A stretch of DNA of 64,000 bases from a virus. Positions 5,630-62,421 of the stretch are shown piece after piece. The DNA lies in the IMG/VR virus record IMGVR_UViG_3300028654_000009. One strand, given 5' to 3'. The notes beneath the pieces were generated by a model, which was given only the letters and a program-made list of their open reading frames with translations, ran no database searches and had not been told where the DNA came from. The first letter of the stretch is position 1, and each line of letters begins with the position of its first letter. Made by a program: the position numbers and the translations under genes.

Positions 5630-7866
5630 TAGAGGCCGCCTGTGTATGCTGGAGAAGTTGCCAAAACGGTTTCCGTACCGTCAAACCATTGAACAACCAA
5701 GCTGTCTGTAGTGGACCGTCCGGGCGTTCCAGATGTCAAAGAAGCAAACGTTATGGAGGTGACACCGGGACTGATGGGATTAGCGGTAGAGATTTTGTAG
5801 TTGAAGCCGGTACGGACGGTTCCGGCTGTTATTCTGGTGGCCATGTTGTTGCAACACTTCGCCGAGTCGTCATTGTCTGTCGTCCTGATCAAAATCCAAG
5901 GAGTGCCCGCGCTCCCTACCTGTGTGACGACATAGATTCCGTTATCTCCGCCGGCTGTGGCCGCTGTTACCAAGATGCGGTCGTTGAGGGCAACCGCTAC
6001 GCTGTCTACCGAGAGGGCTCCGTTAGCGTTTGCCGTTAATGTGCGACCTACAGCGGGACCGCCGCTGGCAGTGTACGCTGGCAGCGCGGCAGCGGTACTT
6101 AGGCGACATGGCGCGCGCCAGAACAAGGTAGGCTTGAGGTACATCCTGGTGTATGCCAGACTTCCTCCCGATACGTACCCACCAGCGAAAGGCTGTGCCA
6201 GTGAAGTGTTGATCCGGAGCGCCCCGGACGCTTCAACAGAAAACAGTTCATCGTCGTTGGTACCTGTAACCCCAAGACTTACTTCACGTTGAGCGGCAAC
6301 ATACAAAACCCCTGCGGCTGAATAAGGTCCACTTGCGCCCAGACCATTGGCCTTCATGGAAATTCCCAACGTACCGAAGGCTGCATAAGAGGACCTCCCC
6401 CGAATAATGGTGCAGCAACCGGCGCTATCGGTCGTGGTCTGCAGGTTAATGGGGAATGAGGTTCCCGATGTAATTAGGATTTGGTTGTCTCCCCCAACAG
6501 AACCTCTACCAATGACGATGTCACCACCGGAAGGAATATTAACCGTATTCCCGAAATCAAGGTTGTGAGAGATACCGCCACAAGTCGCCGTGTAGAAACC
6601 TGTAGGAGACATTGCTACGGTCGGAACAACGGGGATGCTGGCAGGGACCCAAGAACCTGAGGCCATGCTGGTGACTCTGACTGCTCCTGTGGCTCCCGTA
6701 GTGGCCTGGCGAAACGAGCCGCCTACCGGGAACGGCTGGTCGCGCACATATACGTTCGAGCCGCTGCGGTAAGCGATTACAAAGCGCTGGCCAGGTGTGG
6801 CCGAACCGCCAAGAGTCTGCAGAGTTCCTTTTTGTGCAGTCAGGGCGTTTACGCCAGCGACGGTTCTAGTGGTAGACCTATCGATATCAACGTAAAGGCA
6901 CTGTCCGTCAGAGAGATTGGTCAGCCCCGCACTGTCTGTCAATTGGTCATTGATCTCGTTGAGGGTGGCGTTGCTGTTGTCAAAAACAAAACGAAGCCCT
7001 TGCCAATGGAGGTTGGTACCTGTCCACTCGAACGACTCCGAGGTGTTAACAAACACATTTCCGTTGCCAGTCATTCTGATGTTGCGGTCAGCGGCGAGGG
7101 AGTACCAATACTGTCCTCCGCCAATTTCCCACAACTTGGTCATGATGGCGTTCATCCAGTCTTTAGTGGAGAACAGTGAGCGGTCTCCGGCCACAGTAGC
7201 TAGAGAGGCGGAAGACTCGTCACGCCCGCCCGGCCATCCGAACGGATTCACAGACTGGGGGTTACTGCCACCCGAGCCGAGACGAAAGAGCAGGTTGCGA
7301 GCGTCTGTAATGGAAAGGATTGCGTTGGCCCCGTCTGTGGTGACCTTGGCCAAAGGACAGATGCCCGGAGTACCGCTGAACTCGGTCGTGCTGACGACAA
7401 TTACGTAGTCGAGGGTCCTCGCCAGAGGGACGGTATAAGGCGTCTCCAGGCCCGTGTCTGGGTTGTAGAATTGAACAACGTCTGCGGTGCTGTCGTCTGC
7501 GGTTCGAGTGAAGTCGATGCCTACGAAATTGACAGCGTTGGGAGCGAAGCCCCCAGACATTCTGGGGTTGACGGTCGACAGGATCTCGTTGGCTCGGTCC
7601 TCGGGTACGTGCAGGTACGAACCAGCCTCCGAGGCCTCATAATGCAGGATGAGCCCGCCGGCCGTCTGGAGAACCAGCGAGGTCGCCGCGTTCCCTATGA
7701 CGCCAGTGGTGACCAGATTGAAGCCGCTAATGATAGTTGGGACTTTATTGGTAGCGATGAGGCCTAGAACGTCGAAGTCGTTCGCAACACTGGATTCCAG
7801 GGCCCGCAGGTGTTGCAGGTCCACGCGCTGCTGACTCAACCAGTTCTGCTGCCTCTGAATTGCCAT
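5629..7866 (-). CDS. baseplate-attached tail fibre / structural protein
   Basis: 745 aa, G/S/T-rich; C-terminal DRILV...NGIYVV module; AATCTT-N5-ATG. Confidence 0.7.
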   Translation of the reverse strand: MAIQRQQNWLSQQRVDLQHLRALESSVANDFDVLGLIATNKVPTIISGFNLVTTGVIGNAATSLVLQTAGGLILHYEASEAGSYLHVPEDRANEILSTVNPRMSGGFAPNAVNFVGIDFTRTADDSTADVVQFYNPDTGLETPYTVPLARTLDYVIVVSTTEFSGTPGICPLAKVTTDGANAILSITDARNLLFRLGSGGSNPQSVNPFGWPGGRDESSASLATVAGDRSLFSTKDWMNAIMTKLWEIGGGQYWYSLAADRNIRMTGNGNVFVNTSESFEWTGTNLHWQGLRFVFDNSNATLNEINDQLTDSAGLTNLSDGQCLYVDIDRSTTRTVAGVNALTAQKGTLQTLGGSATPGQRFVIAYRSGSNVYVRDQPFPVGGSFRQATTGATGAVRVTSMASGSWVPASIPVVPTVAMSPTGFYTATCGGISHNLDFGNTVNIPSGGDIVIGRGSVGGDNQILITSGTSFPINLQTTTDSAGCCTIIRGRSSYAAFGTLGISMKANGLGASGPYSAAGVLYVAAQREVSLGVTGTNDDELFSVEASGALRINTSLAQPFAGGYVSGGSLAYTRMYLKPTLFWRAPCRLSTAAALPAYTASGGPAVGRTLTANANGALSVDSVAVALNDRILVTAATAGGDNGIYVVTQVGSAGTPWILIRTTDNDDSAKCCNNMATRITAGTVRTGFNYKISTANPISPGVTSITFASLTSGTPGRSTTDSLVVQWFDGTETVLATSPAYTGGL

Positions 7867-7871: not shown

Positions 7872-7877
7872 AAGATT
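7872..7877 (-). promoter_or_regulatory. putative late promoter AATCTT
   Basis: AATCTT-gggac-ATG(7866). Confidence 0.75.
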
Positions 7878-7948: not shown

Positions 7949-8224
7949 ATGCAATTCAAGATGGTATTTAAGGTAAAGTCGGTTACGCAGGATTGGAATG
8001 GTGAGGCCAAGGTCAAGATGGTCCCGACGGGGGCGCCGTTGAGTGGCACGGTCGGCTCGACCGTCAATAACGAGGTCTGGGGAGGCGGCTCACCAAACGG
8101 AGAGATTTTTCTTGACAATGTCTTGGGCGATATCGGGGCCGACCTGATTGCCGGCAAGGAATACAACGTTCTGGTTTATGACATCGACCCCGTGGAAAGA
8201 GCTGGTGGAAAGACTAAGGCTTAA
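7949..8224 (+). CDS. small beta-rich phage protein
   Basis: AAGGAG upstream; FKVKSV...SPNGEI...GKEY pattern. Confidence 0.75.
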   Translation: MQFKMVFKVKSVTQDWNGEAKVKMVPTGAPLSGTVGSTVNNEVWGGGSPNGEIFLDNVLGDIGADLIAGKEYNVLVYDIDPVERAGGKTKA

Positions 8225-9192
8225 TCCGGCGAGCTGCCGTCCTCGTCCCTAGCGGCCATGTACTTCCCTATTTCTCGTTCGAGCTGAGGCTTGTTCCAGA
8301 TGTAGGGAAGGCCCTGCTTGTCGTACCGAATGTCCGTCAATGGGTCGAACTTGTTATCGACCAAGATTTGCCACCGCTCGCGGTACCATCGCTTTTTCTT
8401 GCTGCCGTGCCAAGCATGGGACAGGGTCCCGGGGATAAAGCCAATGTGCCCGCCAGTAACCGGGAGCACCTTGGCTTGCCAATCCAGGCAGGCCTTCTTG
8501 AAGCCAGCCGACATTTCGGCATGATAGCTCTCGTCAACGTGTCCGTACATGGCCCAGGCCATATGGCTGTCAGCTGAGCCCAGGGCGGCGAAGTCCATTA
8601 CGCCGCCCACCTGCTCCCAGAACTCGCGTGTAGCCGCCCAGGCGTAACCAGGGTGGCCAAAGCTGTAAGGCTGGGTAGGCTTGCTCTGGGGCTTCTTGCC
8701 TTTTGATATGAGCTGTCCGAAAGACTGGAAGAGCTGGAGGGCTTCTCCGTTGGGGCCTAGGTCTATGGTCTCGCTCCAGGGCTGAATGACGGGGTCGTGC
8801 TGGAGCTGGTGGATTGTCTCCAAAGCCCAATCGTCATTGCTGAACCAAACATCGGCATCAATCCATGCCACGTAACGCCAGTCGCGAGGCAGCAGGTGGC
8901 GTACCCCCAGGTTGATCATAGGCTCCTTGTACCAAAAGTTGTGGCTGGACCGGAGCTGGAGGTGATTGGGGTTTTGAGAATCCGTAACCTCAAAGTTGCG
9001 ATCCCCGAAAGCAAGCTCGACCACGTAAAGCTGAACGTTGGGGGTGGCCGAGATTTTCTTTTCCCACTCGCGGAAGATGCGGTAGCGGGAATGATAGCGC
9101 ATAGGATTGCTGATAACCGCAACTACGTGGAGCGTCGAATCGCTGGCCAGGTGCGGACTGTTGATCGCCTGAGAAATACCGTGGAACTTCAT
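8221..9192 (-). CDS. glycosyltransferase-like protein (GT-A, DxD)
   Basis: YVAWIDADV, GHPGYAWA, LGSADSHMA, HAWHG; own AATCTT motif. Confidence 0.7.
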   Translation of the reverse strand: MKFHGISQAINSPHLASDSTLHVVAVISNPMRYHSRYRIFREWEKKISATPNVQLYVVELAFGDRNFEVTDSQNPNHLQLRSSHNFWYKEPMINLGVRHLLPRDWRYVAWIDADVWFSNDDWALETIHQLQHDPVIQPWSETIDLGPNGEALQLFQSFGQLISKGKKPQSKPTQPYSFGHPGYAWAATREFWEQVGGVMDFAALGSADSHMAWAMYGHVDESYHAEMSAGFKKACLDWQAKVLPVTGGHIGFIPGTLSHAWHGSKKKRWYRERWQILVDNKFDPLTDIRYDKQGLPYIWNKPQLEREIGKYMAARDEDGSSPD

Positions 9193-9197
9193 GACCG

Positions 9198-9203
9198 AAG
9201 ATT
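9198..9203 (-). promoter_or_regulatory. putative late promoter AATCTT
   Basis: AATCTT-cggtc-ATG(9192); overlaps upstream stop codon. Confidence 0.75.
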
Positions 9204-9630
9204 AGCCCTGTGAGGGCTGCATCCCGTTCGACCACCTGACAAACGAGAAAGCCACGTCTCCCATGATGTGGCCTCGATTGAAGGTCCAGTTCTCAGAAAT
9301 GGTCGAACATTTGTCCGCACGGAACAGTGTCGTGTCCGTTGCCCGGTCGAGCACCAGAATGGAGAAGTATTTCTCCCTGGAAACATCTTCCCACACTGCA
9401 GCCATGCCTAATGCCTGGATGCCGCCGTCTTGGTGGAGTCTGTAGATTTGCATCTGGCCGTGTCCCGATACTGACTGCGGCATCAACTCCATGGGTTCAA
9501 GCGTGTCAATTGTGTGAAGTTCTTTTCGGGGTGTGGAATTCATGATTCCGATGGACGCTACTCGCCCGAGCATGGAACCATTGACGTACACCACAACTTG
9601 TGCCCCAGTGATCAGCCTAGAACGCGCCAT
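9202..9630 (-). CDS. tail tube-like protein
   Basis: 142 aa, ITGAQVVVYVNG...GRV; coupled to baseplate gene. Confidence 0.6.
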   Translation of the reverse strand: MARSRLITGAQVVVYVNGSMLGRVASIGIMNSTPRKELHTIDTLEPMELMPQSVSGHGQMQIYRLHQDGGIQALGMAAVWEDVSREKYFSILVLDRATDTTLFRADKCSTISENWTFNRGHIMGDVAFSFVRWSNGMQPSQG

Positions 9631-12600
9631 TACTCGCCCTTCGCTTTCTTGATTTCGGCGTCAACGGTGTCGCCGCCCCATACGTACACCTGGTCTGAAA
9701 TCTTCGAACTCCCAGTTGCAGGGAACCCTTCACCGCCGAGCCCACGGTCTCCCGGATATCGAACTGTTAGTGCCGTTTCGATACCTGCAGGAGCGATGTC
9801 GGAGATGAGATTTTGTGCAGCCTGCCGGCCGGCAGTAGCAGCTGTGGCGTAGAAAGCGCCAAGCGAATCAATGTTCTCAGGCACTGCCTCGCTGCTCTTC
9901 ACGACCGAAACCGAGCTTCCGATCTCGACCGTAGCCGGGAAAGCGTACCGTCCGTCAATTGCGATTTGGTTGGTGCCGATCGTTCTTTGGTAAGGGAGCG
10001 GCCCTATCTGATTGCCGTGTCCGAACTGCAATACCAAAAACCCTGGGGTCGATGGAATGTTGGCGGTAGACGCCACGTCCAGGAACGTGTAGCTCCCGCC
10101 CTTTTCCCTACGAGAAGTCAGCGTGGTCAAGGATGAGCTTACCGTAATTCCCATTTTGGGATCGAACATGAATGGGCCCTTCAGGTCGTCTTCATTGACA
10201 GCATCCAGAGGCGTTACGACACCCGACCCAGTTACAGATGTGAATGCGAGATGTGTTGAATCCTTGAATACCAATATGTTACTACCCGTTCCGCTTAGGG
10301 CCGTATGGGTGCCATTGAGACCGCCAGTCATGATTCTGTTGCCTCCACGAACCATCACGAACCCGTAGTTGGTCGAACCACTGACATCGTAGACTCCGGA
10401 GTTATTACGGGCGCCCCCTAGAATGACTGGGTAGCTGCCTCCAAGCAGTGTGCCTCGGGAGAAGTAGTGGAACTCGGTAGTGCCTGCGGTCATTTGAGCC
10501 GGCAACACGTGCCACCTTAAGGTCTTGACGTCCAGGTACTCCGTACGAATCGAGGTGAACCCTCCAGACACGTAAACCCGATTTTCGTCGGCAACGTACT
10601 CGCACAGGCCATAGCTGTGGGGGTCGGCCATGTTTGGTAGAGGAGTCCAGATTTTGGTGGCCGGGTCATAGATTTCGGAAGAATTCAGCTCCAACTGACG
10701 CTGTGACTTATTGCTAGGGAAAGGGGCGGTACTGGGGTTGTATCCGATTCCGCCCGCCACGATCACTCTACCGTCTGGGAGTTTTACGCACCCGAAAGCG
10801 TAACGAGCATACGTCATGGACCCAGCCGGAACTGTTGGATTTAGGTTAGACGACAGCGAGACGATTTCGCAGCTGTTGAGTACAGTACCAACCGGAGAAA
10901 GGTCTACCCCAGTTGGGTTATCGTACATAACACCCACCTCTTCGTTGTACATCCCCCTGATATCTGAGTCGACAGCTTGCACCCCAGGCCCGAATCCGAT
11001 TGCGTCTATACACCCGGTAAACCGCGCTGTGTTGGGACAACCGGTGGCAATTTCCGAAGCGGTAGGAGCCATACCGAAATTCCATATCCCCGACAGACCC
11101 CCGTCCGGGGTAGAGGTGGCTACTGAAATGATTACTTTACCGTCAAGATATAGGTAAACCACGCCGCCTGCGGCATTGACCTCAATCAAGAATTGGTGAT
11201 ACACGGGGAACGCGTTGGAGATGGAAGGACCCCACAAAGAAGTCCGCGTGACCGAAGACTTATTGAGAATGCCACCACCAGAGTTCATCCAGTAAAGGAA
11301 AAACTTGTCGTCATTGGTGTCGACGCCGAACATGAGGTTCGTTTGTGTAGCCAACGAAGAGAACGTGGCGGCTCCGTTCCTAAACACAACTCCCTGATTA
11401 TTGGTCATCCAGCCTACAAGAGTGTACGAGAGCTGGAGCTGTCCGTTAAGTGTAGTCTGCGCGGCACCTGGTGCCGGATTCTGCATAAGGCTTGTGGAGA
11501 GGTTCACTCCATAGCCAGACTTGCCAGGTACACGTGCGTTGCCATTGACGGATACGCTGACGGGGCCGGTCAAGATAGCCGCCCCAAAGGCCTCGTCAAA
11601 ATCCCAGCCAGTGATTCCCAAACGAGTGCGGGTTGCGAAACTAACGGGCCTTCGACCGCCAATCACGAGCGCCGTAGTGGAAGTAAGAGGAACCATCGAG
11701 TGTCCCGCACGTGGAGTGATGAGCGAACCCCCAGGTTGAGTCCACGTCCCGGGTCCCTCTTGAATAGCATTCGTAGGCAAGTTAAATGTAGTGTTGCCCC
11801 CAGTCACCAGTAGTTTGGTGCCCAATTGCACCACAGCCTGGTCTGCGGCTGGAGTGACGAGCGAGGTGCTGTCCTGGACTACAGACTTTAGCCAGTTCAT
11901 GGCTGCGTTATTCCAGACTGTGGTCTGCCAGCTACTAAAGCTCGCGTTGTCAATGATGCTATAAATATCGTTAGTAGAGAGAGACACCTTGGGCAACCTA
12001 AAGCCAGCGATACCAAACAGAGGGTCTCCGAAAGGGAGAGGGGTTATGAAGCTATTGACTGTGCTATAGTCAAATTTTACTTGGGTAGGATCGCTAGTCC
12101 CGGGGGCATAAGCCACTATGTTGGTTTTAGCGGATAGCGCGCCCAGGCCCCACATGCGCAAAGGAGACTCGCCCCCGCCCGAGGTCTTCTCAATAACAAC
12201 AACGGCGCTGGTCGCGACCCAATTGACCAACGTGGTGGTATTGACCGCAGTCCAAGCAGCCGCACCGTCTCCCGTAATGGCAGTAGCAAGATTGGACATC
12301 GTGATAGCTGCAGTCCCACCGATGGTGACGGTCACGTTCCCTCCCGTGCCGAAACCGTATGTTCTGGTGGTGCCGCCTGTGCTGATGGACAGAACGTCTC
12401 CAGAAACTGGGTTGGCCAGAAACCAAAGGGGGATAGCCGCCAAGATACCTTGTGTGTTATTGAGCTGGTTAGCGTGTAGAACGGTTCTCAGCGGAGGTCT
12501 CTTAGTAACGATAAGCGGAGTCACGGTCGTTACGGCGGTGGCAGTAAGATTGTTCCAAAGCTGGGAGTACCCTCCAATTAGATAGAGGGAGTTGTTGTTT

Positions 12601-14537
12601 GAGGCGTTGCTTGAATACACTATAGGTGCAGAACCGGAGGTGCAGCTGAAGTCGAGCAGGGCCCCTTGCTGTGTGCGATAGCTAGTCTGCTTGGTGCCAT
12701 TGGTGTTGCTAATCTGGTTTATCGGAGTCAACCACGCGATCGTGTTCCCAGCTCCACCAACGATGTAGTTACCGGTGATCCATACGTCCTTGTCTTGGTC
12801 TGCAACTAGCTGGTTTGGGATGTAGCGAATGGGAGAGAAGGACGTCCATAGAGTGTTGGCTGAAAGATAGGAGGTGCCGAAGGCGGTGTTGGTGCCTCCA
12901 TAAACCCCCGGGTCCACTGCGCCGCTAGAAGATGGTGCGACAAACGAATCTGTGGCTACAGAGTCGATAACGAACGAGCTTCCAATCTGAATCCCATGAT
13001 TGCCGGAGGTGGTTACGGTAGTCGTTCCGTCTGGATTGCGAACAATGTTACTGATTAAGACCTCTTGAGGATTGTGTACGTACGCCCCGCTTCCCTCACT
13101 GCGGTGAACAGACGTGGAGGTGGCAGCCACGTTGACGATAGCTTGGCCGCCGGCCTGCGTAAATAAAGAGTAAGAGGGGTTTTGGTAGATGGTGGACTTA
13201 AGCGGATGAAACAGGACCAAAGAGCGATACGCCAATTGGGACACAGTCTGAGGTGCGGCCTTGGGGTTGGTGATGTCGATGTATTGAGAGGAAGGTCCGA
13301 CGAAGACGTTTACGATAGGGAAGGAGCCCTGATTCACAGCACTGAATTCCGAACCCCGAATGACGACATAGTCTCCAACCACGGTAGAGCCGAGCGGGTA
13401 TGAAAACGAAGAGGAAGACGAAAGCCTGGCAGTGTTGTTGCCCAACAACGTGATGGTCCAGGTAGTGGCCGGAGGTGCGGCCGTACTGATAGTTGACAGT
13501 GCGCTGGGGAACTGAATGTCCGGCTGAGCCGTACCACCAGTGATTCGAATTGCCGACACCAGGCCTCGGCTGCCTGAGTAAACACGGAGCTTCTTGACGC
13601 CAGTGGTGGTATCCTGAGTAGAGGTGGCGTAAGCGTTCGCCCCGGCGTCTTCGAATGCTCGATTGATGACTGCGGCTACCTCGTCCACCAGGGCTCGGCG
13701 AATGATAGCGAAATCCGTTCGATTGAGGGTCACGTTTACTAGGTGCAGCTCGTCCACAAGGATTGACAGAGTCGTGCCATCGTTTAGCGTCATTGGCTCG
13801 TTGACGGCTGCGTCTGCATACGCCCGGACTGTCTCGGTCCCACAAAGGACCTCAAGAATGTCCGCCACGGCGCTGGAGGTGAGCTTCGAGCTGACGGTAG
13901 CAATAGCCAGCTTCCTGAAATCTTGGTCCGAAATCCCGATGTTGGCCGGGCGGGCGATTCCGTAGTCTGATGCCCTCTTGGTCAGATAGCTCCCAGAGGC
14001 GGAAGTCAAGAACAATTGGTCAAAGGCCGACTGAGCCATAGCTTTGACGCTGGCGTCGCCCGTGGCCAGGCCGGCGATGATGGCCTCCCAGGTGGGGCGG
14101 TTACGGTAAGCCGGATTCAGGAAGGAACGAAGGGTGTCCGCAGACGCCGCGTTCGTGGCCCCGCCCGGGATAGGTCCCTCTTTGACCGCAGAAATAGCGA
14201 ATGAAACCGTCAGGGGCGCTCCCGAGGCCGTCAAGGCGATGCCGCTGATCGAAGTGACAGTGCCGGCAACGGTCAGGGTGTAGCTACCGGGAGCCAAAAA
14301 AGCAAAAACGTCAATAGTTTCAAGATCTTGCGCGGTCGGACTGACACTGGAGACGGTGACTGGACCGCTGGGCCCCGTGATGGTATAGTTGGGCGCGTAG
14401 TCGGCCCGCACGGAATTGCTCCCTGAGACCGTTTTGGGCGTATCGGTGTACCTGACGCGAATAGTAGTCAATACGCCCGAGCTGGAATAGTTCAGGGGAA
14501 CGGCGGAATCTAGGCGGAAGTCCAAGGAAATGGCCAC
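9630..14537 (-). CDS. large baseplate wedge-like protein with kelch repeats and LamG-like domain
   Basis: LFLTSASGSYL...YGIARP...SDQDFRKL wedge motif; kelch blades; start reassigned to GTG 14537 by the AATCTT-N5 rule. Confidence 0.75.
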   Translation of the reverse strand: MAISLDFRLDSAVPLNYSSSGVLTTIRVRYTDTPKTVSGSNSVRADYAPNYTITGPSGPVTVSSVSPTAQDLETIDVFAFLAPGSYTLTVAGTVTSISGIALTASGAPLTVSFAISAVKEGPIPGGATNAASADTLRSFLNPAYRNRPTWEAIIAGLATGDASVKAMAQSAFDQLFLTSASGSYLTKRASDYGIARPANIGISDQDFRKLAIATVSSKLTSSAVADILEVLCGTETVRAYADAAVNEPMTLNDGTTLSILVDELHLVNVTLNRTDFAIIRRALVDEVAAVINRAFEDAGANAYATSTQDTTTGVKKLRVYSGSRGLVSAIRITGGTAQPDIQFPSALSTISTAAPPATTWTITLLGNNTARLSSSSSFSYPLGSTVVGDYVVIRGSEFSAVNQGSFPIVNVFVGPSSQYIDITNPKAAPQTVSQLAYRSLVLFHPLKSTIYQNPSYSLFTQAGGQAIVNVAATSTSVHRSEGSGAYVHNPQEVLISNIVRNPDGTTTVTTSGNHGIQIGSSFVIDSVATDSFVAPSSSGAVDPGVYGGTNTAFGTSYLSANTLWTSFSPIRYIPNQLVADQDKDVWITGNYIVGGAGNTIAWLTPINQISNTNGTKQTSYRTQQGALLDFSCTSGSAPIVYSSNASNNNSLYLIGGYSQLWNNLTATAVTTVTPLIVTKRPPLRTVLHANQLNNTQGILAAIPLWFLANPVSGDVLSISTGGTTRTYGFGTGGNVTVTIGGTAAITMSNLATAITGDGAAAWTAVNTTTLVNWVATSAVVVIEKTSGGGESPLRMWGLGALSAKTNIVAYAPGTSDPTQVKFDYSTVNSFITPLPFGDPLFGIAGFRLPKVSLSTNDIYSIIDNASFSSWQTTVWNNAAMNWLKSVVQDSTSLVTPAADQAVVQLGTKLLVTGGNTTFNLPTNAIQEGPGTWTQPGGSLITPRAGHSMVPLTSTTALVIGGRRPVSFATRTRLGITGWDFDEAFGAAILTGPVSVSVNGNARVPGKSGYGVNLSTSLMQNPAPGAAQTTLNGQLQLSYTLVGWMTNNQGVVFRNGAATFSSLATQTNLMFGVDTNDDKFFLYWMNSGGGILNKSSVTRTSLWGPSISNAFPVYHQFLIEVNAAGGVVYLYLDGKVIISVATSTPDGGLSGIWNFGMAPTASEIATGCPNTARFTGCIDAIGFGPGVQAVDSDIRGMYNEEVGVMYDNPTGVDLSPVGTVLNSCEIVSLSSNLNPTVPAGSMTYARYAFGCVKLPDGRVIVAGGIGYNPSTAPFPSNKSQRQLELNSSEIYDPATKIWTPLPNMADPHSYGLCEYVADENRVYVSGGFTSIRTEYLDVKTLRWHVLPAQMTAGTTEFHYFSRGTLLGGSYPVILGGARNNSGVYDVSGSTNYGFVMVRGGNRIMTGGLNGTHTALSGTGSNILVFKDSTHLAFTSVTGSGVVTPLDAVNEDDLKGPFMFDPKMGITVSSSLTTLTSRREKGGSYTFLDVASTANIPSTPGFLVLQFGHGNQIGPLPYQRTIGTNQIAIDGRYAFPATVEIGSSVSVVKSSEAVPENIDSLGAFYATAATAGRQAAQNLISDIAPAGIETALTVRYPGDRGLGGEGFPATGSSKISDQVYVWGGDTVDAEIKKAKGE

Positions 14538-14553: not shown

Positions 14554-14581
14554 TTGACAGATTGCCGAGGTGTGGTATCAA
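14554..14581 (+). promoter_or_regulatory. sigma70-like early promoter
   Basis: TTGACA-N16-TATCAA with TGn extension; 7 nt to ATG 14589. Confidence 0.7.
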
Positions 14582-15810: not shown

Positions 15811-15971
15811 AGATCAGAAAACCAAAGGCGACGGACAAGCGGCTGGTGGAGTTGACCAGGCTCTGCCAGTGTGGTCGCCCACTAGGCTTCCACGGATTCC
15901 CGAAGCCACACGCGGTCTACGACGACCAGGAAAACGTCCTTTGCGCCGGGTTCAGGGAGGCTAAGCCATGA
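15807..15971 (+). CDS. small Zn-binding-like protein
   Basis: GTGA overlap; LCQCGRPLGFH...H...CAGF. Confidence 0.6.
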   Translation: MKIRKPKATDKRLVELTRLCQCGRPLGFHGFPKPHAVYDDQENVLCAGFREAKP

Positions 15972-27434: not shown

Positions 27435-27440
27435 AAGATT
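27435..27440 (-). promoter_or_regulatory. putative late promoter AATCTT
   Basis: AATCTT-cggtg-GTG(27429). Confidence 0.75.
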
Positions 27441-27441
27441 A

Positions 27442-27496
27442 GAGCCCAGGTCGAGGGCGTCTACGGTTCGGTGACCTGGGCTCCTCGACCTGGGCT
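27442..27496. repeat. intergenic inverted repeat with two alternative partners
   Basis: 27443-27456 pairs with 27483-27496 (14 bp); 27442-27452 pairs with 27473-27483 (11 bp). Confidence 0.8.
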
Positions 27497-29451: not shown

Positions 29452-29457
29452 AAGACT
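29452..29457 (-). promoter_or_regulatory. variant late-type motif AGTCTT
   Basis: AGTCTT-caaat-ATG(29446). Confidence 0.45.
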
Positions 29458-32777: not shown

Positions 32778-32783
32778 AAGATT
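32778..32783 (-). promoter_or_regulatory. putative late promoter AATCTT
   Basis: AATCTT-caatc-GTG(32772). Confidence 0.75.
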
Positions 32784-38890: not shown

Positions 38891-38918
38891 TTGACGGATT
38901 CCAAGGTTCGGCTATCAT
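38891..38918 (+). promoter_or_regulatory. sigma70-like early promoter
   Basis: TTGACG-N16-TATCAT; 7 nt to ATG 38926. Confidence 0.75.
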
Positions 38919-39924: not shown

Positions 39925-41922
39925 TTAAATATCCCTAGTGGAAACCGCCCCACTCAAAATCGATCCCGAATAGCTCGGCGTAATTGTAATCTGGCCTACA
40001 ATTGTGGTTCCAGGGGTGTCGTACACCTTCCTTCGCTCTTGGGTCAAAAGCCCTGAGCTGTAGGTGTACGAAATCGTCTTTATCAGGTTGGTGGTAGCAG
40101 TGTTCGTCCAGCTTTCGAAGGTGATAGCCCCCGAGGTGTAGGTCACCGTCAGGGTCACGCCAACGGTAACGGGGTCGACTTCCAGCAGTGTGTCGATGCT
40201 TTGCGTGGTCGAGAGGCCCACGTCGCGAGTCATGGTGTAGCCCGTCAAGACGCCCGAGCTATAGATAAAGGCGTATGTGATCTGAGCCTGCACAACTCCT
40301 GAGGTGTCGTAAGCCTTTACGATCTGTGTCGAAACTAACCCCGAGGAGTAGGTGTAATCCACAGTTTTGATTGTCTGTGGCACCACGTTGGCCCAGGTCT
40401 CGTTCATAAGTAAACCGGAGGAGTAGGTCGGTGTCCAATTGATAGTTGGAGTCGCCGGATCGTTCATCAAGATCGCATTGTAGTCCACCCCACCGCCGCC
40501 CCCACCAGCTGGAGCAGCCCAGGTGCCGTCAGCTCTGAGGAAGTTTGTGGTGCCTCCCCCTGAGGCCGGCGTAAGGCCTTGCAGGAGCGAGGTGAACAGG
40601 TTGAGGTCAGCCGTCAGTTGGGTCGAGGTGACGTCAATCGGCGTAGCCGAGGAGCCCGTGTTGTTGCCCTTGTAGGTGTGGGCAGCCATATTGGCTAGCT
40701 TGGCGTTCGTTACCGAGCTGGCGGTTAGGTCCGTCCCCGAGCCCGAGGTAGCAATGGTGGCAAGACCTGAGACTGCCCCTGCGGCGATAGCAATTGATAC
40801 GGACGAAGCAGCTGTTATCAATCCTTTGCCGTTGACGGTGAAACTGCCAACGTGTGAAGCATCGCCAAAGGTCCCTGTGTTCGAGTTGACCGTGGCCAGG
40901 GTGGTGGCCAGCGCGCCGGCAACGGTCGTTATATCTCCCGTCAAGGCCGGGAACCGGCCAGCTGGGAGGGTACCTGCCACAAGGTCAGAAGCGGACCCCG
41001 AGGTAGCAATAGCTGCTAACCCAGACACAGCCCCAGCCGCTATCGAAATGGCCACGCTGGCAACAGCTGTGACGAGGCCCTTCCCATTTACCGTCAGTTG
41101 CGCAACGTGTGCAACATCCCCAAACGAGCCAACATTGGAGTTGACCGTGGCAAGGGTTGTCGCGTAAGACCCACCAGGCGTCGTTATGTCGCCAGTAAAT
41201 GTACCCTGGCGAGCTGCGGGAATGGTACCGGCCACCAGGTCAGAAGCCGACCCCGAGGTGGCAATGGTGGCGAGCCCCGAAACCGCTCCAGCTGCGATGG
41301 AGATAGCGACACTGGAAGCGGCCGTCACCAGGCCCTTCCCGTTGACCGTGAAGCTCCCTACGTGGCTGGCGTCGCCCCAGGAGCCTACGTTGGCATTTAC
41401 GGTGGCCAGGGTGGTGGCCAGGCCCCCTGCGGCGGTTGTCAGGTCACCTGTCAGGGCAGGGAACCGGCCCGCCGGCAAAGTCCCCGCCACAAGGTCTGTG
41501 GCTGAGCCTGAGGTGGCGATAGCGGCGAGGCCCGACACGTCCGAGGCCGAGATGGCCAAAAGAGTCTTGACCTGCGTAGCGGTCAAATCAAGAGCATTGG
41601 CGGTGCCCGCCGTATTGTTGCCCTTGAGCGTAAAGGCGGCCATCTGGGCCAGCTTGGCATTGCTAACCGCGTTAGACGCTATGGTGGCGACCTGGGAGCC
41701 GGTACCGGGCCCGGCCAGGACATCTCCCGTGAGCTGCGTAATCCCGCCGGCTGTCCCTGGGTGGACGTGGTCAATCGCTGCAGCTAGGAGGCTGGTACCC
41801 GCGCTAGCCGTGCCGTTGGCTAGGGGCAGCGTAGAGTTGTCGACATACGCCGCATCTCGGAAGGCGGTGGGAGTGCCCAAATCCGAGATGCGAATTAGGC
41901 CGGCTGACTTAGATGCGCTCAC
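39925..41922 (-). CDS. tail-fibre-like protein with three 85-aa repeats and duplicated C-terminal beta module
   Basis: 255-nt period repeats; TYSSG-rich module twice. Confidence 0.8.
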
Positions 41923-41928: not shown

Positions 41929-41934
41929 AAGATT
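41929..41934 (-). promoter_or_regulatory. putative late promoter AATCTT
   Basis: AATCTT-gactga-GTG(41922). Confidence 0.7.
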
Positions 41935-43630: not shown

Positions 43631-43796
43631 GCCTGGAAGATTCAGTCTTAGGGCGCATCAACTCGGCAATGCGGACCTTTGCTCGCTCAATCCTGCGGTC
43701 CATTTCCTCACGTGAACACCCACGTTCGAGGTCGCGCAGGAGACGTTCGGCGTCCTCCCCATACAGGGTCGGAGTCGCCACGATCGGGAGGCTCAT
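43599..43796 (-). CDS. small hypothetical protein
   Basis: PIVATPTLYGEDAERLL motif; ATGA overlap. Confidence 0.7.
   Translation of the reverse strand: MSLPIVATPTLYGEDAERLLRDLERGCSREEMDRRIERAKVRIAELMRPKTESSRHEAEDQSPGD
43637..43642 (-). promoter_or_regulatory. putative late promoter AATCTT
   Basis: AATCTT-ccaggc-ATG(43630). Confidence 0.6.
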
Positions 43797-44156: not shown

Positions 44157-44534
44157 TTACTTGCTCCCATTCCACCCCAAGAAAAAAGAAAGAGCAGCCA
44201 CGATGGCAGCTCCGACAATGCTGTAAACCATTTTTTTGATATCTCGCTTTTGTTCTACCCTGTTCGCCTCTGCTTGTCGCAGGTTATGCAGGTCAGATTT
44301 GGCTTCCTGCCGGTATTGCTTCAGCTCCTCTACGTCGCGCTTCAACGTACCTAACTCTTCCTTGACCTCAGTAGTATCCTCTTTAATACTCGACACCGCG
44401 CTTTCAAGCCTAGCCATGGAGGGCGCCATCTCCATTAGAATTTCCTCCAGCCTCCACAAGCGGTCAGCGTGCTCGTTCGTCACTCTGCCCATTGGTGTAT
44501 CGTCGTTTACATAATGCGGAGCCGGCTTTGCCAT
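44157..44534 (-). CDS. coiled-coil protein with C-terminal TM
   Basis: Heptads then YSIVGAAIVAALSFFLGW; ATG 44534 after AATCTT. Confidence 0.75.
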   Translation of the reverse strand: MAKPAPHYVNDDTPMGRVTNEHADRLWRLEEILMEMAPSMARLESAVSSIKEDTTEVKEELGTLKRDVEELKQYRQEAKSDLHNLRQAEANRVEQKRDIKKMVYSIVGAAIVAALSFFLGWNGSK

Positions 44535-44540: not shown

Positions 44541-44554
44541 AAGATTACAATCTA
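44541..44554. promoter_or_regulatory. divergent pair of late-type motifs (AATCTT on -, AATCTA on +)
   Basis: aAGATTacAATCTa; 6 nt to ATG 44534(-) and 5 nt to ATG 44560(+). Confidence 0.7.
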
Positions 44555-46348: not shown

Positions 46349-46376
46349 AAGATACCACAGCTCTGCGGGCCGTCAA
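46349..46376 (-). promoter_or_regulatory. sigma70-like early promoter
   Basis: TTGACG-N16-TATCTT with TGn extension. Confidence 0.75.
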
Positions 46377-48116: not shown

Positions 48117-48403
48117 GATTGGTCGCCCTTCAGGAAGTTCTGGTAGGTCGTCTCGGCGGCGTCGCGGGCGCAGAGGAACTTGACGACACTGTCGTACTTC
48201 GCGTTCAGAGCGCTGATCCCTTTGGGGCCGACGTAGTCCTGCTTGTTCACGCCGGCCAGAGCCTGATTCAGCTCTACGACCGCAAGCTGGTAGCGCTCGT
48301 CAGCCTCGAACCAGATATCCGCCAAGAGCTGGCGCTCCTGGTAGAAGTCTTCCTCCCCCAGAAGTCGGGTTGTTTTCGATGCCCAGCTGTCCGATTGGCT
48401 CAT
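48113..48403 (-). CDS. small helical protein
   Basis: AGGAG SD in repeated leader. Confidence 0.8.
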   Translation of the reverse strand: MSQSDSWASKTTRLLGEEDFYQERQLLADIWFEADERYQLAVVELNQALAGVNKQDYVGPKGISALNAKYDSVVKFLCARDAAETTYQNFLKGDQS

Positions 48404-48471
48404 GGGATTCTCCTAGAAAGGGTTTTCGTCGGGACAAGAATTACTCTATGATACTCCACCGGAGTCGTCAA
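48401..48471 (-). promoter_or_regulatory. early promoter plus repeated leader
   Basis: TTGACG-N17-TAGAGT then aattcttgtcccgacgaaaacc...aggagaatcccATG. Confidence 0.75.
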
Positions 48472-49421: not shown

Positions 49422-49601
49422 CTACCGGTTGACGGACCGCGAGAGCCGCTCCGACGGGGTCTCAGCGGCGGACTTTTCGATCTGCTCTCGGATTGCGGGG
49501 ATAGACTTGAGCACCGCCCGAGCGATGATGAGCCAGAAAAGCGCGACGCAGAAGAAAAAACACGCGAAGAGGGACAAAAGAATGATAATCACGGTTGCCA
49601 T
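49422..49601 (-). CDS. small membrane protein (59 aa)
   Basis: MATVIIILLSLFACFFFCVALFWLII; AGGAG SD in repeated leader. Confidence 0.7.
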   Translation of the reverse strand: MATVIIILLSLFACFFFCVALFWLIIARAVLKSIPAIREQIEKSAAETPSERLSRSVNR

Positions 49602-49667
49602 GGGATTCTCCTAGAGAGGTTTTCGTCGGGACAAGAATTACTCTACCAGGGTTTTGAGAGTCGTCAA
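49599..49667 (-). promoter_or_regulatory. early promoter plus repeated leader
   Basis: TTGACG-N16-TAGAGT with TGn extension. Confidence 0.8.
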
Positions 49668-50151: not shown

Positions 50152-50179
50152 ACTCTACCAGACTATCAAAAGGTGTCAA
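50152..50179 (-). promoter_or_regulatory. sigma70-like early promoter
   Basis: TTGACA-N16-TAGAGT; 50152-50181 identical to 59789-59818. Confidence 0.8.
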
Positions 50180-50184: not shown

Positions 50185-50190
50185 AATCTT
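50185..50190 (+). promoter_or_regulatory. putative late promoter AATCTT
   Basis: AATCTT-agggt-ATG(50196). Confidence 0.75.
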
Positions 50191-50636: not shown

Positions 50637-50752
50637 TCGCCGTCCTCGTCGTCGCCTGGGTCCCATTCAATCATCGCCACCGTAACCAACATTGCGATTG
50701 CCCCGCAAACCACTCCGATAGCGAACAAGACGGTACCAGCCAAGGGGTCCAT
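50633..50752 (-). CDS. tiny membrane protein (39 aa)
   Basis: TAATG coupling; one TM plus acidic tail. Confidence 0.55.
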   Translation of the reverse strand: MDPLAGTVLFAIGVVCGAIAMLVTVAMIEWDPGDDEDGD

Positions 50753-51828
50753 TAAAACCCGTCCAGGTCGGGGTGGTGGTTGTGCGGATTGCCCCAATGA
50801 ACCAGCTCGCACAGGGTCCGGTCAATAGCGACCCGGTCAGGCCCGTGTGGCAGCTTCGAGGTCTGGTAGGCGGACTCGATTAGCTGGTCGGTGCTGGCTG
50901 CATACTCAATCAGCCTGTCGTAGCTCCAGGCTCCATTGCGAATCGCCAACAGCTCCTCGGCGTCTGGCCTCTTTACGATGCAACCCTTCCCTTCAAGGAT
51001 TTCCTTGCACATCCGCATCAGCCGCACGAGGTGGGCCCCGTGCTTGGCGTCGTAACCAGACTGAGCTTCCAGAGCGGCCCTGGCCGGGTTGCGCTCGGTC
51101 TTCCACTTCTGATAGCTGACGTACTCACGCATGGCGGACCCGTACTTGCGCTCAGCGATAACGATGGGGATCAGGGCAGCCGACACGATCCCGTCAATGG
51201 CCTGGTGAATGAGATGCTCGTCTAAGATTTGGCCCTTGGTCGCTCCCAGCCCGCCGGCCACGTCTTCCAGCTTCTGGACCTTGGAGTTGATGAGCCCCAT
51301 TTCCTCCTTCGGGATTGTGGAATGCTCGGGGAGGTTGAAGTCAGCTCGCTCGGGCTTGCGGTCTCGGGGCTGCAGCAAGAAGCTCCGATGGGTCTTGATG
51401 CGCTTGAGCTGCGAATAAGCGTACCCAGAGAAACGGTGTCGAGCGGCCTTGGTCAGGAACAAGTCTCGAATGCCATACAGGCGCATCCAGTTGAAGTCGT
51501 CGCCTTCTTGCGGGTACAACCAATCGCTCTCGTCAGTGAACAACAGCTCAATGACGTTGGGGTTACACTCGGTAGCCAGAGCTACGAACTTGCGGATATC
51601 ATAAATCACGCAATCGATGTCGCCCTTGATTTCGGCTTGCTCGAACTTGTTGAGGAAGCCGTAGAAGTACCGCAGGGGCGGGATGGCCACGCCCCTGATG
51701 TCGAGGTCGGACGCAGGCGTGTTGGTCCCGTAAGCGTGGCTGCCGGCCTTGCACAAAAAGATGGTGCCGTTCTTGAGCCAGTCTAGGTTGCCCTTGTAAT
51801 GGGACCAATCGAATTTATCGGTAGACAA
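50752..51828 (-). CDS. DNA pol beta-superfamily nucleotidyltransferase (RlaP/Nuc-transf-like)
   Basis: GSHAYGTNTPASDLDIRGV, NPNVIELLF, GYDAKHGAHLVRL, LLAIRNG. Confidence 0.85.
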   Translation of the reverse strand: MSTDKFDWSHYKGNLDWLKNGTIFLCKAGSHAYGTNTPASDLDIRGVAIPPLRYFYGFLNKFEQAEIKGDIDCVIYDIRKFVALATECNPNVIELLFTDESDWLYPQEGDDFNWMRLYGIRDLFLTKAARHRFSGYAYSQLKRIKTHRSFLLQPRDRKPERADFNLPEHSTIPKEEMGLINSKVQKLEDVAGGLGATKGQILDEHLIHQAIDGIVSAALIPIVIAERKYGSAMREYVSYQKWKTERNPARAALEAQSGYDAKHGAHLVRLMRMCKEILEGKGCIVKRPDAEELLAIRNGAWSYDRLIEYAASTDQLIESAYQTSKLPHGPDRVAIDRTLCELVHWGNPHNHHPDLDGF

Positions 51829-55631: not shown

Positions 55632-55659
55632 ATGATACTCGATTCCGGGCACTCGTCAA
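55632..55659 (-). promoter_or_regulatory. sigma70-like early promoter
   Basis: TTGACG-N16-TATCAT. Confidence 0.75.
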
Positions 55660-56064: not shown

Positions 56065-56567
56065 TGGACGACTTGTTCCGGCAGTGCCAGACATTGGCGC
56101 TGGCGGACGTCCTTGCCGAAAAGCCTTCGGCCGAGTATTCGCTCCGGCGAATCTTCCGAGCGTATTCCGAAAAGTTCCACACACCCCTCCACCTGGTGGA
56201 CGACATTCCCTTGGTGGACGTTTTGACGCACTACTACGAGACCTGCTTTGAGTCAATGCTGGACGGCGACGATGCAGCCCAAAACGAGCTTGACGAGCTG
56301 ACCAAGACCCTCTCTATGTCCGAGCAAGAGGCCGAGAAGGCCCGCGCCGAGAAGGCCAAGCAGCAATACCGAGACTACCTGTTCGAGCAAGAGCTTAAGC
56401 GAGAGGCGGCGTCCCAGGAAAAGCCCAAGGCCCAGGAAGTCCTCAAGAAGACAGAGGAACTCATCAACGCTTTGCAGAACGAAGAAATCAAGATGCAGTT
56501 CGTCAGCGAAGAAGAGATGGATGCACTATCCAATCAGGACGGCGTGGGCTCTCTGCTGGACCTGTAA
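56064..56567 (+). CDS. probable second tail assembly chaperone
   Basis: RAYSEKFHTPL; acidic; TAATG coupling. Confidence 0.55.
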   Translation: MDDLFRQCQTLALADVLAEKPSAEYSLRRIFRAYSEKFHTPLHLVDDIPLVDVLTHYYETCFESMLDGDDAAQNELDELTKTLSMSEQEAEKARAEKAKQQYRDYLFEQELKREAASQEKPKAQEVLKKTEELINALQNEEIKMQFVSEEEMDALSNQDGVGSLLDL

Positions 56568-57898
56568 TCCTCCCAAAGCTGCGCCCGGGCGAAAGCCTGA
56601 CACCGGCCCATAAACTGGGCTGGCGTATCGTCTGGGTTGTCTAGGGCTAGCTTACGGGCCGCAGTATCGTCCAGGGTGATTCTAATGCCGAGGCGAACCT
56701 TGGCTTCGAAGTCGATGGCCCCTATCTCTACGATTGAGTCGATCCGCCCAGGCCTGGTGGCCGTGCCGTCCTCTCGGACCTGTCCCAATGCGGGGTCGAT
56801 GTGTTTTAGGTGGTTGGTGGTTATGAGCAATATCCTGCCATGAGAAGGGGCCAAGCCGTCAATCGCGTTGAGAATGGTATCGAAGGTCAGCTCGGAACCG
56901 GGTACCTGGTTTTCGCGACCATGAAAAACTGCGTCGAAGTCTTCCAACAGTATGATGTGCGGGGAGGGGAAAGAATCGGCGTACTCAATAACACTTCTGA
57001 AACCCTGGTTATCGATAGCCGCAAGATCGACGGTGAGTACAGTTAGGCCAAAGCGCTGGGATACAGCCCGGACCAGAGAGGTTTTGCCCGTACCCGGAGG
57101 ACCGTAAAGCAGGGCGCCATAGTTCCAGGGTACCCCTCGCTTTTTGTGCCATTCTTCGTGGTCTATGAAGAACTCCAATTCGCGCTCGATTCGCACCATG
57201 CCTGGCGACAGCTCAATGTTTGAGAAAGGGTCGGAGGTGGGATCAATGTCAACTTCCTCCTCGGAGGCCCCCATCCAAACCTGTCCGTTGTTGATATTCA
57301 ATCGCTTGAACTTGGCCGGACCCATAGCTCGGGTCAGCAATTTGTTGTTAGGGATGATGCTCCCGTGCTTGTCAACATTGCATCTTACAAACATGACGTT
57401 TTTGCTTGTGCCGGCGGCGCTGTCCGCCTTTTCAATAAGCTCCTTCGTCTCTAGGCCGATCCTGCGTACCAGTTTCCCCCAGTCAAAGGTAAACCGGAAG
57501 AAGATGAATGAGCCCACTATGGTATCGGGGACGTCGCCTCTCCCGCTTTCCCCAGGCTTCTTGAAGAACAGTGGCCTGCCCTCGAACAAAAAGAACATGT
57601 CTCCGGAGGTCAGCTCATGCGCGGTAACGTCGGTAAGCTGTTGCGATATCATCACCCTCATGGGGCTAACGCTTTTGGTTCCAAACGGAATGCGCACCCT
57701 GGAATTCCTATAGAAATATGAAAGCAACTCCTGGTTTGTGCCTTCTGAGCCGTACTTGATTTCCTCGAACAATAGGGTTTTCAGCACCCCAAGCGCAAAC
57801 GCCCCTATGTCCCGCAGGCTTGAGGCAACAACAGAGCCTATGAAGCCTGCGGCGCCGAGTTCGAACAGAAGCTTGTGAGCGAAAATGAAGGCTAGCAC
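56534..57898 (-). CDS. BCS1-like AAA+ ATPase
   Basis: RGVPWNYGALLYGPPGTGKTS, LLEDFD, ILNAIDG, TTNH...DPAL...RPGRID; N-terminal TM. Confidence 0.85.
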   Translation of the reverse strand: MLAFIFAHKLLFELGAAGFIGSVVASSLRDIGAFALGVLKTLLFEEIKYGSEGTNQELLSYFYRNSRVRIPFGTKSVSPMRVMISQQLTDVTAHELTSGDMFFLFEGRPLFFKKPGESGRGDVPDTIVGSFIFFRFTFDWGKLVRRIGLETKELIEKADSAAGTSKNVMFVRCNVDKHGSIIPNNKLLTRAMGPAKFKRLNINNGQVWMGASEEEVDIDPTSDPFSNIELSPGMVRIERELEFFIDHEEWHKKRGVPWNYGALLYGPPGTGKTSLVRAVSQRFGLTVLTVDLAAIDNQGFRSVIEYADSFPSPHIILLEDFDAVFHGRENQVPGSELTFDTILNAIDGLAPSHGRILLITTNHLKHIDPALGQVREDGTATRPGRIDSIVEIGAIDFEAKVRLGIRITLDDTAARKLALDNPDDTPAQFMGRCQAFARAQLWEDYRSSREPTPS

Positions 57899-58113
57899 GG
57901 TTCCTCCCAAAACTCGATGTATTGGAATCCGTTCCGGAATCCCAGGGAGCGAAAGCGTTCCTTGGTGGGGAAGGACTCGGGTATTGCGGGCTCATACTCC
58001 GGCCACGCTTTACAGCGTCCACCGTCGCAGCCGTTGGCGTCGCAGTCACGACAGTAGCCGTTGAGAAGCAGGTCCTCGTCGAAGCAGCTGGGGCAAGCGC
58101 AATGGATTTCCAT
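57892..58113 (-). CDS. small Cys-rich protein
   Basis: CPSC...YCRDCDANGC. Confidence 0.65.
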   Translation of the reverse strand: MEIHCACPSCFDEDLLLNGYCRDCDANGCDGGRCKAWPEYEPAIPESFPTKERFRSLGFRNGFQYIEFWEEPC

Positions 58114-58893: not shown

Positions 58894-59240
58894 CGGTCTC
58901 CGCCGCCTTTGATACGAAATGGAGAGTTTGCGGAGCGACGGGCGGCCCACTCCGGGAATCGCAGGGCTTGCAGCTTGAGGATGCCCAGGTCCGCCTTGCC
59001 GTGGTAGGTTTCCGACCCGATCGAAATGTCCTCCAGCTTGCCGCCGATGCGGGTGCGCTTGACGATTCGGAAAGCCTTGATTCCGACACGAATCATGTAG
59101 CCTTCCTTGTCCTGACCACGAACGCCGTAATAGCTGAAACGATTGCCCCCGGCCACCCGGAACAGCCCGGCGTCACGCAGGGTGGCCTCGACGGCGGTGC
59201 GCTTGTCGTTCTGGTTGCTGCGGGAAGTGATGGAAGTCAT
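58890..59240 (-). CDS. basic hypothetical protein (MTSI start)
   Basis: AAGGAG SD in repeated leader. Confidence 0.8.
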   Translation of the reverse strand: MTSITSRSNQNDKRTAVEATLRDAGLFRVAGGNRFSYYGVRGQDKEGYMIRVGIKAFRIVKRTRIGGKLEDISIGSETYHGKADLGILKLQALRFPEWAARRSANSPFRIKGGGDR

Positions 59241-59308
59241 TGGCGGCTCCTTGAGAGGGTTTTCGTTCGGGACAAGAATTACTCTACCAGAGTTTTGAGA
59301 GTCGTCAA
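59241..59308 (-). promoter_or_regulatory. early promoter plus repeated leader
   Basis: TTGACG-N16-TAGAGT; 59269-59310 matches 49628-49669 at 41/42 nt. Confidence 0.8.
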
Positions 59309-59788: not shown

Positions 59789-59816
59789 ACTCTACCAGAC
59801 TATCAAAAGGTGTCAA
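59789..59816 (-). promoter_or_regulatory. sigma70-like early promoter
   Basis: TTGACA-N16-TAGAGT with TGn extension. Confidence 0.8.
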
Positions 59817-59821: not shown

Positions 59822-59827
59822 AATCTT
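59822..59827 (+). promoter_or_regulatory. putative late promoter AATCTT
   Basis: AATCTT-acttt-GTG(59833). Confidence 0.75.

Positions 59828-62421: not shown

Follow-up and report, generated by a model that had tools for sequence, protein, structure and literature searches.

A candidate −10-only late promoter box, AATCTT, and predicted leaderless late messages in a phage related to Myxococcus phage Mx1

How are the late genes of a phage expressed when neither a Shine-Dalgarno (SD) sequence nor a −35 promoter element stands ahead of their start codons? The question is raised by a viral DNA of 64,000 nucleotides (IMG/VR record IMGVR_UViG_3300028654_000009; the whole stretch is referred to below as the window), in which the hexamer AATCTT lies 5 or 6 nt before the first codon of tail, baseplate and lysis-type genes. 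An initial annotation had proposed that the hexamer is a late-promoter motif read by a phage-encoded sigma factor or RNA polymerase (RNAP), with initiation at or next to the start codon. Every computational test run here supported a late promoter that consists of a −10 element alone and produces mRNAs without a leader, the transcription start sites, the late timing and the assignment of a sigma factor being inferred from sequence. On balance, it is probable that the late promoters have AATCTT as their sole recognition element and that a phage sigma factor reads it together with the host core polymerase, which would yield leaderless mRNAs.

Position and conservation of the AATCTT box

The window has a G+C content of 55-62%, and very large genes of the tail and baseplate predominate in it, including those for Baseplate_J, sheath-initiator, Kelch-repeat and tail-fibre-like proteins. 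Between positions 1988 and 46075 it matches metagenome contigs of ~138-166 kb (e.g., ENA k141_1227868, 165,848 bp) at 99.6-100% identity. The nearest cultured relative of the window phage is Myxococcus phage Mx1 (OR576727.2), with protein identities of 28-43%, and it is from this kinship that the host is presumed to be a myxobacterium.

AATCTT occurs 29 times in the window, and 14 of these copies precede the ATG or GTG of a long open reading frame (ORF) on the same strand by 5-6 nt. When all hexamers were scored over the whole window for an ATG or GTG at 5-6 nt downstream that opens an ORF of at least 75 amino acids (aa), AATCTT ranked first of 4096, its 14/29 standing against an all-hexamer background of 1.5% (binomial P = 1.7e-18). 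In the same scoring, the SD word AAGGAG reached 5/38, and versions of AATCTT with one mismatch reached 9/370, near background. The positional enrichment proposed at the outset is thus borne out, and the box also heads late genes in relatives (see below). All 14 sites named in the initial annotation carry the exact hexamer on the strand assigned to them, with a spacing of 5 nt at nine sites and 6 nt at five; the start codons that follow are ATG (8) and GTG (6), never TTG. The two variants it had listed, AGTCTT and AATCTA, are among the one-mismatch versions and are both real gene heads, each 5 nt before an ATG. Together, the 14 exact and two variant boxes head tail, baseplate and lysis-type units:

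7872..7877, minus strand: AATCTT, 5 nt to ATG 7866; gene 5629-7866, 745 aa, tail-fibre-like, orthologue of Mx1 139197-141188
9198..9203, minus strand: AATCTT, 5 nt to ATG 9192; gene 8221-9192, 323 aa
14543..14548, minus strand: AATCTT, 5 nt to GTG 14537; gene 9630-14537, 1635 aa, Kelch-repeat
27435..27440, minus strand: AATCTT, 5 nt to GTG 27429 (2 nt to GTG 27432); Baseplate-J-like gene 20416-27429/27432
29452..29457, minus strand: variant AGTCTT, 5 nt to ATG 29446, 166 aa; the genes after it, down to 27502, are SD-led or overlapping
32778..32783, minus strand: AATCTT, 5 nt to GTG 32772; baseplate assembly/sheath-initiator gene 30178-32772, 864 aa
38881..38886, minus strand: AATCTT, 5 nt to GTG 38875; heads the 925-aa gene 36098-38875, then 36075, 35557 and 33461
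41929..41934, minus strand: AATCTT, 6 nt to GTG 41922; gene 39925-41922, 665 aa
43396..43401, minus strand: AATCTT, 6 nt to ATG 43389, 79 aa; heads the TAATG-coupled run 43389, 43150, 42908
43637..43642, minus strand: AATCTT, 6 nt to ATG 43630, 76 aa
44541..44546, minus strand: AATCTT, 6 nt to ATG 44534, 125 aa, XhlA/'hemolysin'-like
44549..44554, plus strand: variant AATCTA, 5 nt to ATG 44560, 157 aa
46382..46387, plus strand: AATCTT, 6 nt to ATG 46394, 304 aa; orthologue of Mx1 79561-80583
50185..50190, plus strand: AATCTT, 5 nt to ATG 50196, 146 aa
55664..55669, plus strand: AATCTT, 5 nt to ATG 55675, 129 aa, orthologue of Mx1 74303-74728; followed by the TAATG-coupled gene 56064
59822..59827, plus strand: AATCTT, 5 nt to GTG 59833, 862 aa; followed by the TAATG-coupled gene 62421

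Position counts reveal that the base 5' of the box is never A and that the three bases 3' of it are mainly G or C. At eight of the 14 sites no sequence is shared outside the box itself. The box at 9198..9203 overlaps the TAA stop codon of the upstream tail-tube-like gene 9202-9630, and the AATCTA at 44549 on the plus strand sits 2 nt from the AATCTT at 44541 on the opposite strand, forming a divergent late/late pair. Box-linked starts indeed lack an SD sequence, as had been claimed, because 5-6 nt leaves no space for one; genes without a box mostly possess an AGGAG/AAGG-type SD or TAATG coupling. The coupling of downstream genes through TAATG holds at 5081, 5629, 9630, 35557, 42908, 43150, 56064 and 62421. 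The absence of a co-oriented −35 element likewise stands: neither position counts nor a sigma70 scan revealed one ahead of the late genes. In particular, counts from −25 to −1 showed no TGn motif (extended −10) and no other co-oriented conservation.

The corrections of gene starts that had been derived from the box fared less evenly. An independent gene caller run on near-identical contigs agrees with starts 14537 and 43389, and the N-terminus of the Mx1 orthologue agrees with 46394. Start 44534 is favoured by a match to an XhlA-like PHROG family from residue 19, whereas the gene caller favours an SD-led in-frame ATG at 44435; at 27429, a tandem GTG GTG allows either 27429 or 27432 as the start. 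On the near-identical contigs, the gene caller placed the same starts as the box at 7866, 9192, 14537 (2/3 contigs), 32772, 38875, 41922, 43389, 43630 and 29446. The 125-aa product of the gene that begins at 44534 (44157-44534, minus strand) matches PHROG 'hemolysin' (XhlA-like) families and is probably a lysis protein; small ORFs follow down to ~43600, so the match and these ORFs possibly mark a lysis cassette.

The box is retained in relatives of the window phage, although its distance from the start codon is not. In Mx1, [C/T]AATCTT precedes late genes either by exactly 6 nt from ATG (6 sites) or by 9-36 nt (12 sites), and an SD is visible in most of the longer leaders; a G before the box is permitted in the window phage, unlike in Mx1. 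The box-headed genes of Mx1 encode the portal, prohead protease, baseplate, Kelch and tailspike proteins, one protein whose gene lies between those for sheath and capsid, and others. For the genes that start at 7866, 14537, 27429, 32772 and 55675, the orthologues in Mx1 carry the box at 22, 10, 36, 6 and 26 nt, respectively, and the upstream DNA of these orthologues shares only the heptamer with the window. In a complete relative of 158.6 kb and 49% G+C (G002), CAATCT is the top hexamer 5-40 nt before the starts of long ORFs, and the box lies 17 and 33 nt upstream of the baseplate and baseplate-J orthologues (leaders of 17-33 nt in L018/G002); in another relative (L017), it lies ~80 nt upstream of the start. 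Thus, the 5-6-nt spacing applies to every box-linked gene head in the window but to only about one third of those in Mx1 (6/18). Since the box sequence and the gene are kept while the distance varies and most longer leaders contain a separate SD, the box appears to be a transcription signal. Relative to Mx1, G002 and L017, the leader seems to have shrunk to nothing in the window phage.

The replication and nucleotide-metabolism module of the same phage (contig positions 59069-102861) served as a control. It contains 20 copies of AATCTT in 44 kb, none in the 5-6-nt arrangement, and only two of them are leadered copies, both beside packaging genes.

Divergent early promoters beside the late boxes

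Upstream of several late boxes recurs the word GTCAAG. Together with GATACC/TCTACCA, it was considered as a co-oriented −35/−10 pair like those of extracytoplasmic function (ECF) sigma factors, with AATCTT opening a short leader; this candidate was rejected once the blocks had been read on the opposite strand. There, they take the form TTGAC(A/G), an invariant 16-nt spacer and TATCAT, TAGAGT, TATCTT or TATCAA, often with an ATG 6-7 nt on. The GTCAAG blocks are predicted host-type sigma70 promoters of divergent, mostly small, early-type genes, several of them leaderless:

14554..14581, plus strand: early promoter TTGACA, 16 nt, TATCAA; 7 nt to ATG 14589 (299-aa gene)
38891..38918, plus strand: early promoter TTGACG, 16 nt, TATCAT; 7 nt to ATG 38926, leaderless
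46349..46376, minus strand: early promoter TTGACG, 16 nt, TATCTT; serves an SD-led gene from 46330
50152..50179, minus strand: early promoter TTGACA, 16 nt, TAGAGT; 7 nt to ATG 50144, leaderless
55632..55659, minus strand: early promoter TTGACG, 16 nt, TATCAT; its leader bears an SD
59789..59816, minus strand: early promoter TTGACA, 16 nt, TAGAGT

GTCAAG is therefore the reverse complement of a divergent early −35, and the late box has no co-oriented −35. The word recurs because six late boxes each adjoin a host-type early promoter that points the opposite way; in these six of the 14 cases the AATCTT box is 4-5 bp away from the early −35. An ECF-sigma layout (GGAAC-type −35, GTC-type −10) was tested as a co-oriented two-block motif and was not found.

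Three of the divergent regions are only 50-51 bp long from start codon to start codon and are fully accounted for: 14537/14589 (51 bp), 38875/38926 (50 bp) and 50144/50196 (51 bp). Each consists of a start codon, 5 nt, AATCTT on the other strand, 4-5 nt, the early −35, 16 nt, the early −10, 7 nt and the second start codon. As these modules are wholly occupied, there is no space for another co-oriented promoter. A more far-reaching view builds on this packing, namely that the whole virion and lysis regulon is leaderless, with nearly half of it initiated at GTG, that it is expressed from single 7-bp boxes read by a new family of sigma factors lacking region 4.2, and that the early and late holoenzymes exclude each other from binding at the modules with 4-5-bp spacing, which would make each of them a compact temporal toggle. 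In this complete form, the proposal is tentative and somewhat doubtful.

Early-type promoters also occur away from the late boxes. Three near-identical cassettes on the minus strand (48403-48471, 49601-49667 and 59240-59308) carry TTGACG, a 16-17-nt spacer and TAGAGT, and continue into a conserved leader of ~35 nt, an AGGAG-/AAGGAG-type SD and ATG; they form a repeated promoter-plus-leader unit for small early genes. A 'GATC-box' promoter class was also looked for in the window and the replication module, where no peak was found at 22-24 nt.

The candidate reader and competing explanations

The initial annotation had left it open whether a phage sigma factor or a phage RNAP reads the box. The former part gained support, as a sigma70-family gene was located on the near-identical contig k141_1227868 by a gene-by-gene walk; a scan with a degenerate peptide pattern returned 42 metagenome loci, none of which encodes a sigma. 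The 362-aa ORF (L073:11750-12838) lies directly after a helicase gene, as in Mx1, and its product is 38% identical to the annotated putative sigma of Mx1, WNM70309 (E = 6e-73). The family has 369 members at E <= 0.001, that of Mx1 included, and many are encoded on 150-180-kb contigs. A profile of 31 members matches the primary sigma factors (SigA/RpoD) of Thermus, Taq and E. coli at E ~1e-8; the match spans region 2.1, region 3 and the helix of region 4.1, and ends there. Moreover, all 120 family C-termini among the matches listed stop no more than ~25 residues past an ...ERKLLxLKG motif, so the helix-turn-helix of region 4.2, which reads the −35, is absent. The proteins are 335-362 aa long, retain regions 3 and 4.1 and have an N-terminal extension of ~130 aa. 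An AlphaFold model of the sigma has a mean pLDDT of 78, and among the PDB matches listed there are only sigma chains or sigma-RNAP models. Every complete relative examined (the window phage, Mx1 and G002) encodes this sigma without region 4.2.

The other part, a phage polymerase, was not borne out. No Pfam RNAP beta/beta' domain was found in the whole Mx1 record, while the controls matched, which leaves a phage-owned enzyme unsupported; nor do the gene lists over ~79 kb of the window phage's contig contain an RNAP domain. In the search for T7-type RNAP, the control itself gave no match. A sigma without region 4.2 fits a promoter without a −35, and the two co-occur; the host core polymerase with the phage sigma is thus the most economical reader, and the phage sigma is inferred to read the AATCTT box. 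A separate candidate, a 66-aa 'sigma4-like' ORF (L071:3604-3801) coupled to the first dnaE gene, resembled a stand-alone region 4 by eye but was discarded, as it had no Pfam match and a best PDB E of 0.34. This dnaE region of the same phage lies beyond the window (L071:3604-7977), and in it DnaE is called as two overlapping genes of 598 and 801 aa.

It is proposed that the host core RNAP and the phage sigma (362 aa, regions 2 to 4.1) open the box DNA without contact with a −35. The box is best written N-AATCT-T, where N is never A, and probably represents a −10-like signal rather than a ribosome site. A-11 and T-7 are the non-template bases that sigma70-family factors flip out and capture. With +1 placed on the start codon's first base, the 5-nt spacing gives the register A-11 A-10 T-9 C-8 T-7 T-6, which would place the invariant A and T of the box at −11 and −7, with a G-rich discriminator after them. 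In the NAATCT register, the element ends 6-7 nt before the start codon, which equals the distance from −10 to ATG in the phage's own leaderless early promoters. Transcription would start on the A or G that opens the start codon or no more than one base away, and the virion and lysis messages would consequently have no leader and no SD. Translation of the downstream genes of each unit would proceed via TAATG coupling or their own SD. The exclusive use of ATG and GTG at box-linked starts agrees with the rule for leaderless initiation established in mycobacteria, where a 5'-terminal ATG or GTG is both required and sufficient (PMC4633059).

Several points weigh against this reading. Five sense-strand copies of AATCTT lie within late genes (8363, 12288, 12546, 56150 and 61388) and would also be predicted to fire, so that either the 6-7-bp box is insufficient alone or internal starts are tolerated; no avoidance of AATCTT on the sense strand within late genes is visible in the window. 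Start 44534 has a good SD-led alternative at 44435. The tie between sigma and box consists of co-occurrence in three genomes and the missing region 4.2, and the start sites, the timing and the leaderless translation are all deduced from DNA. Efficient leaderless translation from GTG has been shown in mycobacteria, not in Myxococcota, and the host itself is deduced solely from the kinship to Mx1.

The box might also be read by a host sigma factor, primary or alternative, once a phage protein has displaced or remodelled region 4 of that factor, in the manner of gp39 of phage P23-45 or AsiA of T4, while the phage sigma serves other genes. The box is one base away from two host-type −10 elements of this phage (TATCTT at 46376 and 55354), one early −10 reads TAATCT, and nothing in the sequence links the phage sigma physically to the box; P23-45's middle and late promoters do use the host sigma A after gp39 has displaced its region 4 (PMC7403470). 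However, the expected requirement of a sigma without region 4.2 is just such a single box with neither a −35 nor a TGn, and a sigma of this kind has been kept in all three complete genomes. Moreover, no gp39 or AsiA homologue was recognised, though no search aimed at them was made. A host sigma is therefore regarded as an unlikely reader, albeit one to be taken seriously.

Much lower still is the probability that AAUCUU acts in RNA, either as a non-SD ribosome-binding or enhancer element or as an endoribonuclease site at which polycistronic RNA is trimmed to short leaders. AAUCUU has no complementarity to the canonical 3' tail of 16S rRNA. The box does stand at an SD-like distance from the start codon, and the copies at 9198, 27435, 32778, 41929, 43396 and 43637 follow co-directional genes, two of them after hairpins, so that read-through RNA is possible there. 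Six boxes, in contrast, abut a divergent promoter and have no upstream co-oriented gene to supply such RNA. In Mx1, G002 and L017, the box lies 9 to ~80 nt upstream, and most such leaders contain an ordinary SD; being distant from the start and accompanied by a separate SD, it is not the ribosome site in these relatives, and a non-SD ribosome site was rejected on account of this variable spacing. That the pattern has no function of its own and arose from base composition or from the copying of intergenic cassettes has next to no probability. Some flanks have been copied, since 50185 and 59822 share ~45 nt, and 14543, 46382 and 59822 share 10 nt before the box; yet the eight sites with nothing but the box in common, the strength of the enrichment and the retention of the word at orthologous gene heads across genomes with a protein identity of only 35-43% refute such an origin. 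The −10-only late promoter read by the phage sigma with the host core hence remains the preferred explanation.

Relation to known systems and genomic surroundings

T4 late promoters consist of a −10 box, TATAAATA, which is served by gp55, gp33 and gp45 together with the host core polymerase. Judged by architecture, the system of the window phage may be likened to that of T4 (gp55 sigma, gp33 co-activator, gp45 clamp), which likewise has one short box at about −10 and no −35, dozens of box copies heading virion genes, and a phage-made sigma70-family protein that lacks the −35-reading part and works with the host core polymerase. The two differ in the box (TATAAATA in T4, AATCTT here) and in the sigma factor, which in the window phage is about twice as long as gp55 and keeps regions 3 and 4.1 in addition to the N-terminal extension of ~130 aa. 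Moreover, T4 late mRNAs have leaders with an SD, whereas 14-16 messages from the window are predicted to be leaderless. The T4 late box and gp55, gp33 and gp45 have been named together (PMC3014915).

Promoters set close to start codons also occur elsewhere. In Actinobacteria and their phages, a −10 lies 6-7 nt before ATG or GTG without an SD, a layout shared by the early genes of the window phage; its late box, however, lacks the form of a TANNNT hexamer with a −35 partner, and its presumed host is a myxobacterium. The Thermus phages phiYS40 and P23-45, which have leaderless middle/late genes, reportedly possess −35-less late promoters directly against start codons, in work attributed to Sevostyanova et al. 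2007 and Berdygulova et al. 2011. These promoters rely on the host sigma A aided by gp39/gp76 and contain a TG extension, whereas the window phage has no TG and a sigma of its own; the extended −10 promoter class of P23-45 and the role of gp39 have been described (PMC7403470). Systems of the phiKZ/AR9 type require beta/beta' subunits of a phage multisubunit RNAP, for which the Mx1 record gave no Pfam match.

The arrangement would thus represent a single-box late system of the T4-gp55 kind combined with leaderless expression, each of which is known singly. What is new comprises the sequence of the box, a longer sigma in which region 4.1 is retained, leaders lost almost throughout, GTG starts included, and the fixed packing against early promoters. 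The literature searched contains no description of an AATCTT box or of promoters for the Mx1 group; neither the Mx1 genome announcement (PMC10720576) nor a 2026 preprint on myxophage diversity includes a promoter analysis. For late transcription in the Mx1 group, which has at least 369 sigma-bearing relatives in metagenomes, the box offers a simple rule that can be put to the test; it also improves gene-start calls in the genomes of this group. A sigma family that naturally lacks region 4.2, together with its candidate cognate box, would be useful for studying −35-independent promoter opening, and for timed expression the 50-bp early/late modules provide compact parts of natural origin. It is also implied that host ribosomes translate leaderless ATG and GTG messages efficiently, which goes beyond what is established for Myxococcota.

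A few observations concern individual genes and junctions. Searches for close relatives among phage genomes, by megablast and by tblastn with the 925-aa protein, returned nothing. For the 864-aa protein, a single-protein locus search gave no match, although alignment to Mx1 succeeded. Loci L001-L006 match internal repeats rather than gene heads. Between late units, 21 intrinsic terminators were found against 18.4 expected, which is no enrichment. Hairpins lie directly upstream of two boxes on the minus strand, at 9170-9203 and 27441-27485; they have stems of 6 and 9 bp with no T-run after them, stand at co-directional gene junctions and may be RNA-stabilising or pause structures.

The first ~2 kb of the window (~62% G+C) have no match in the 165-kb contigs of this phage, the junction being near 1988. 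Positions 679-2717 are instead 99% identical to another family of contigs of ~27 kb (L064-L066) that encode a 5'-3' exonuclease, and positions 15840-15965 show 83% similarity to the same contigs. As the switch near 1988 lies within a shared 243/244-aa gene, it points to a recombination mosaic or an assembly chimera. Amid the early-type genes, the minus strand also encodes an RlaP-type nucleotidyltransferase of an RNA-repair family (50752-51828) and an AAA ATPase (56534-57910).

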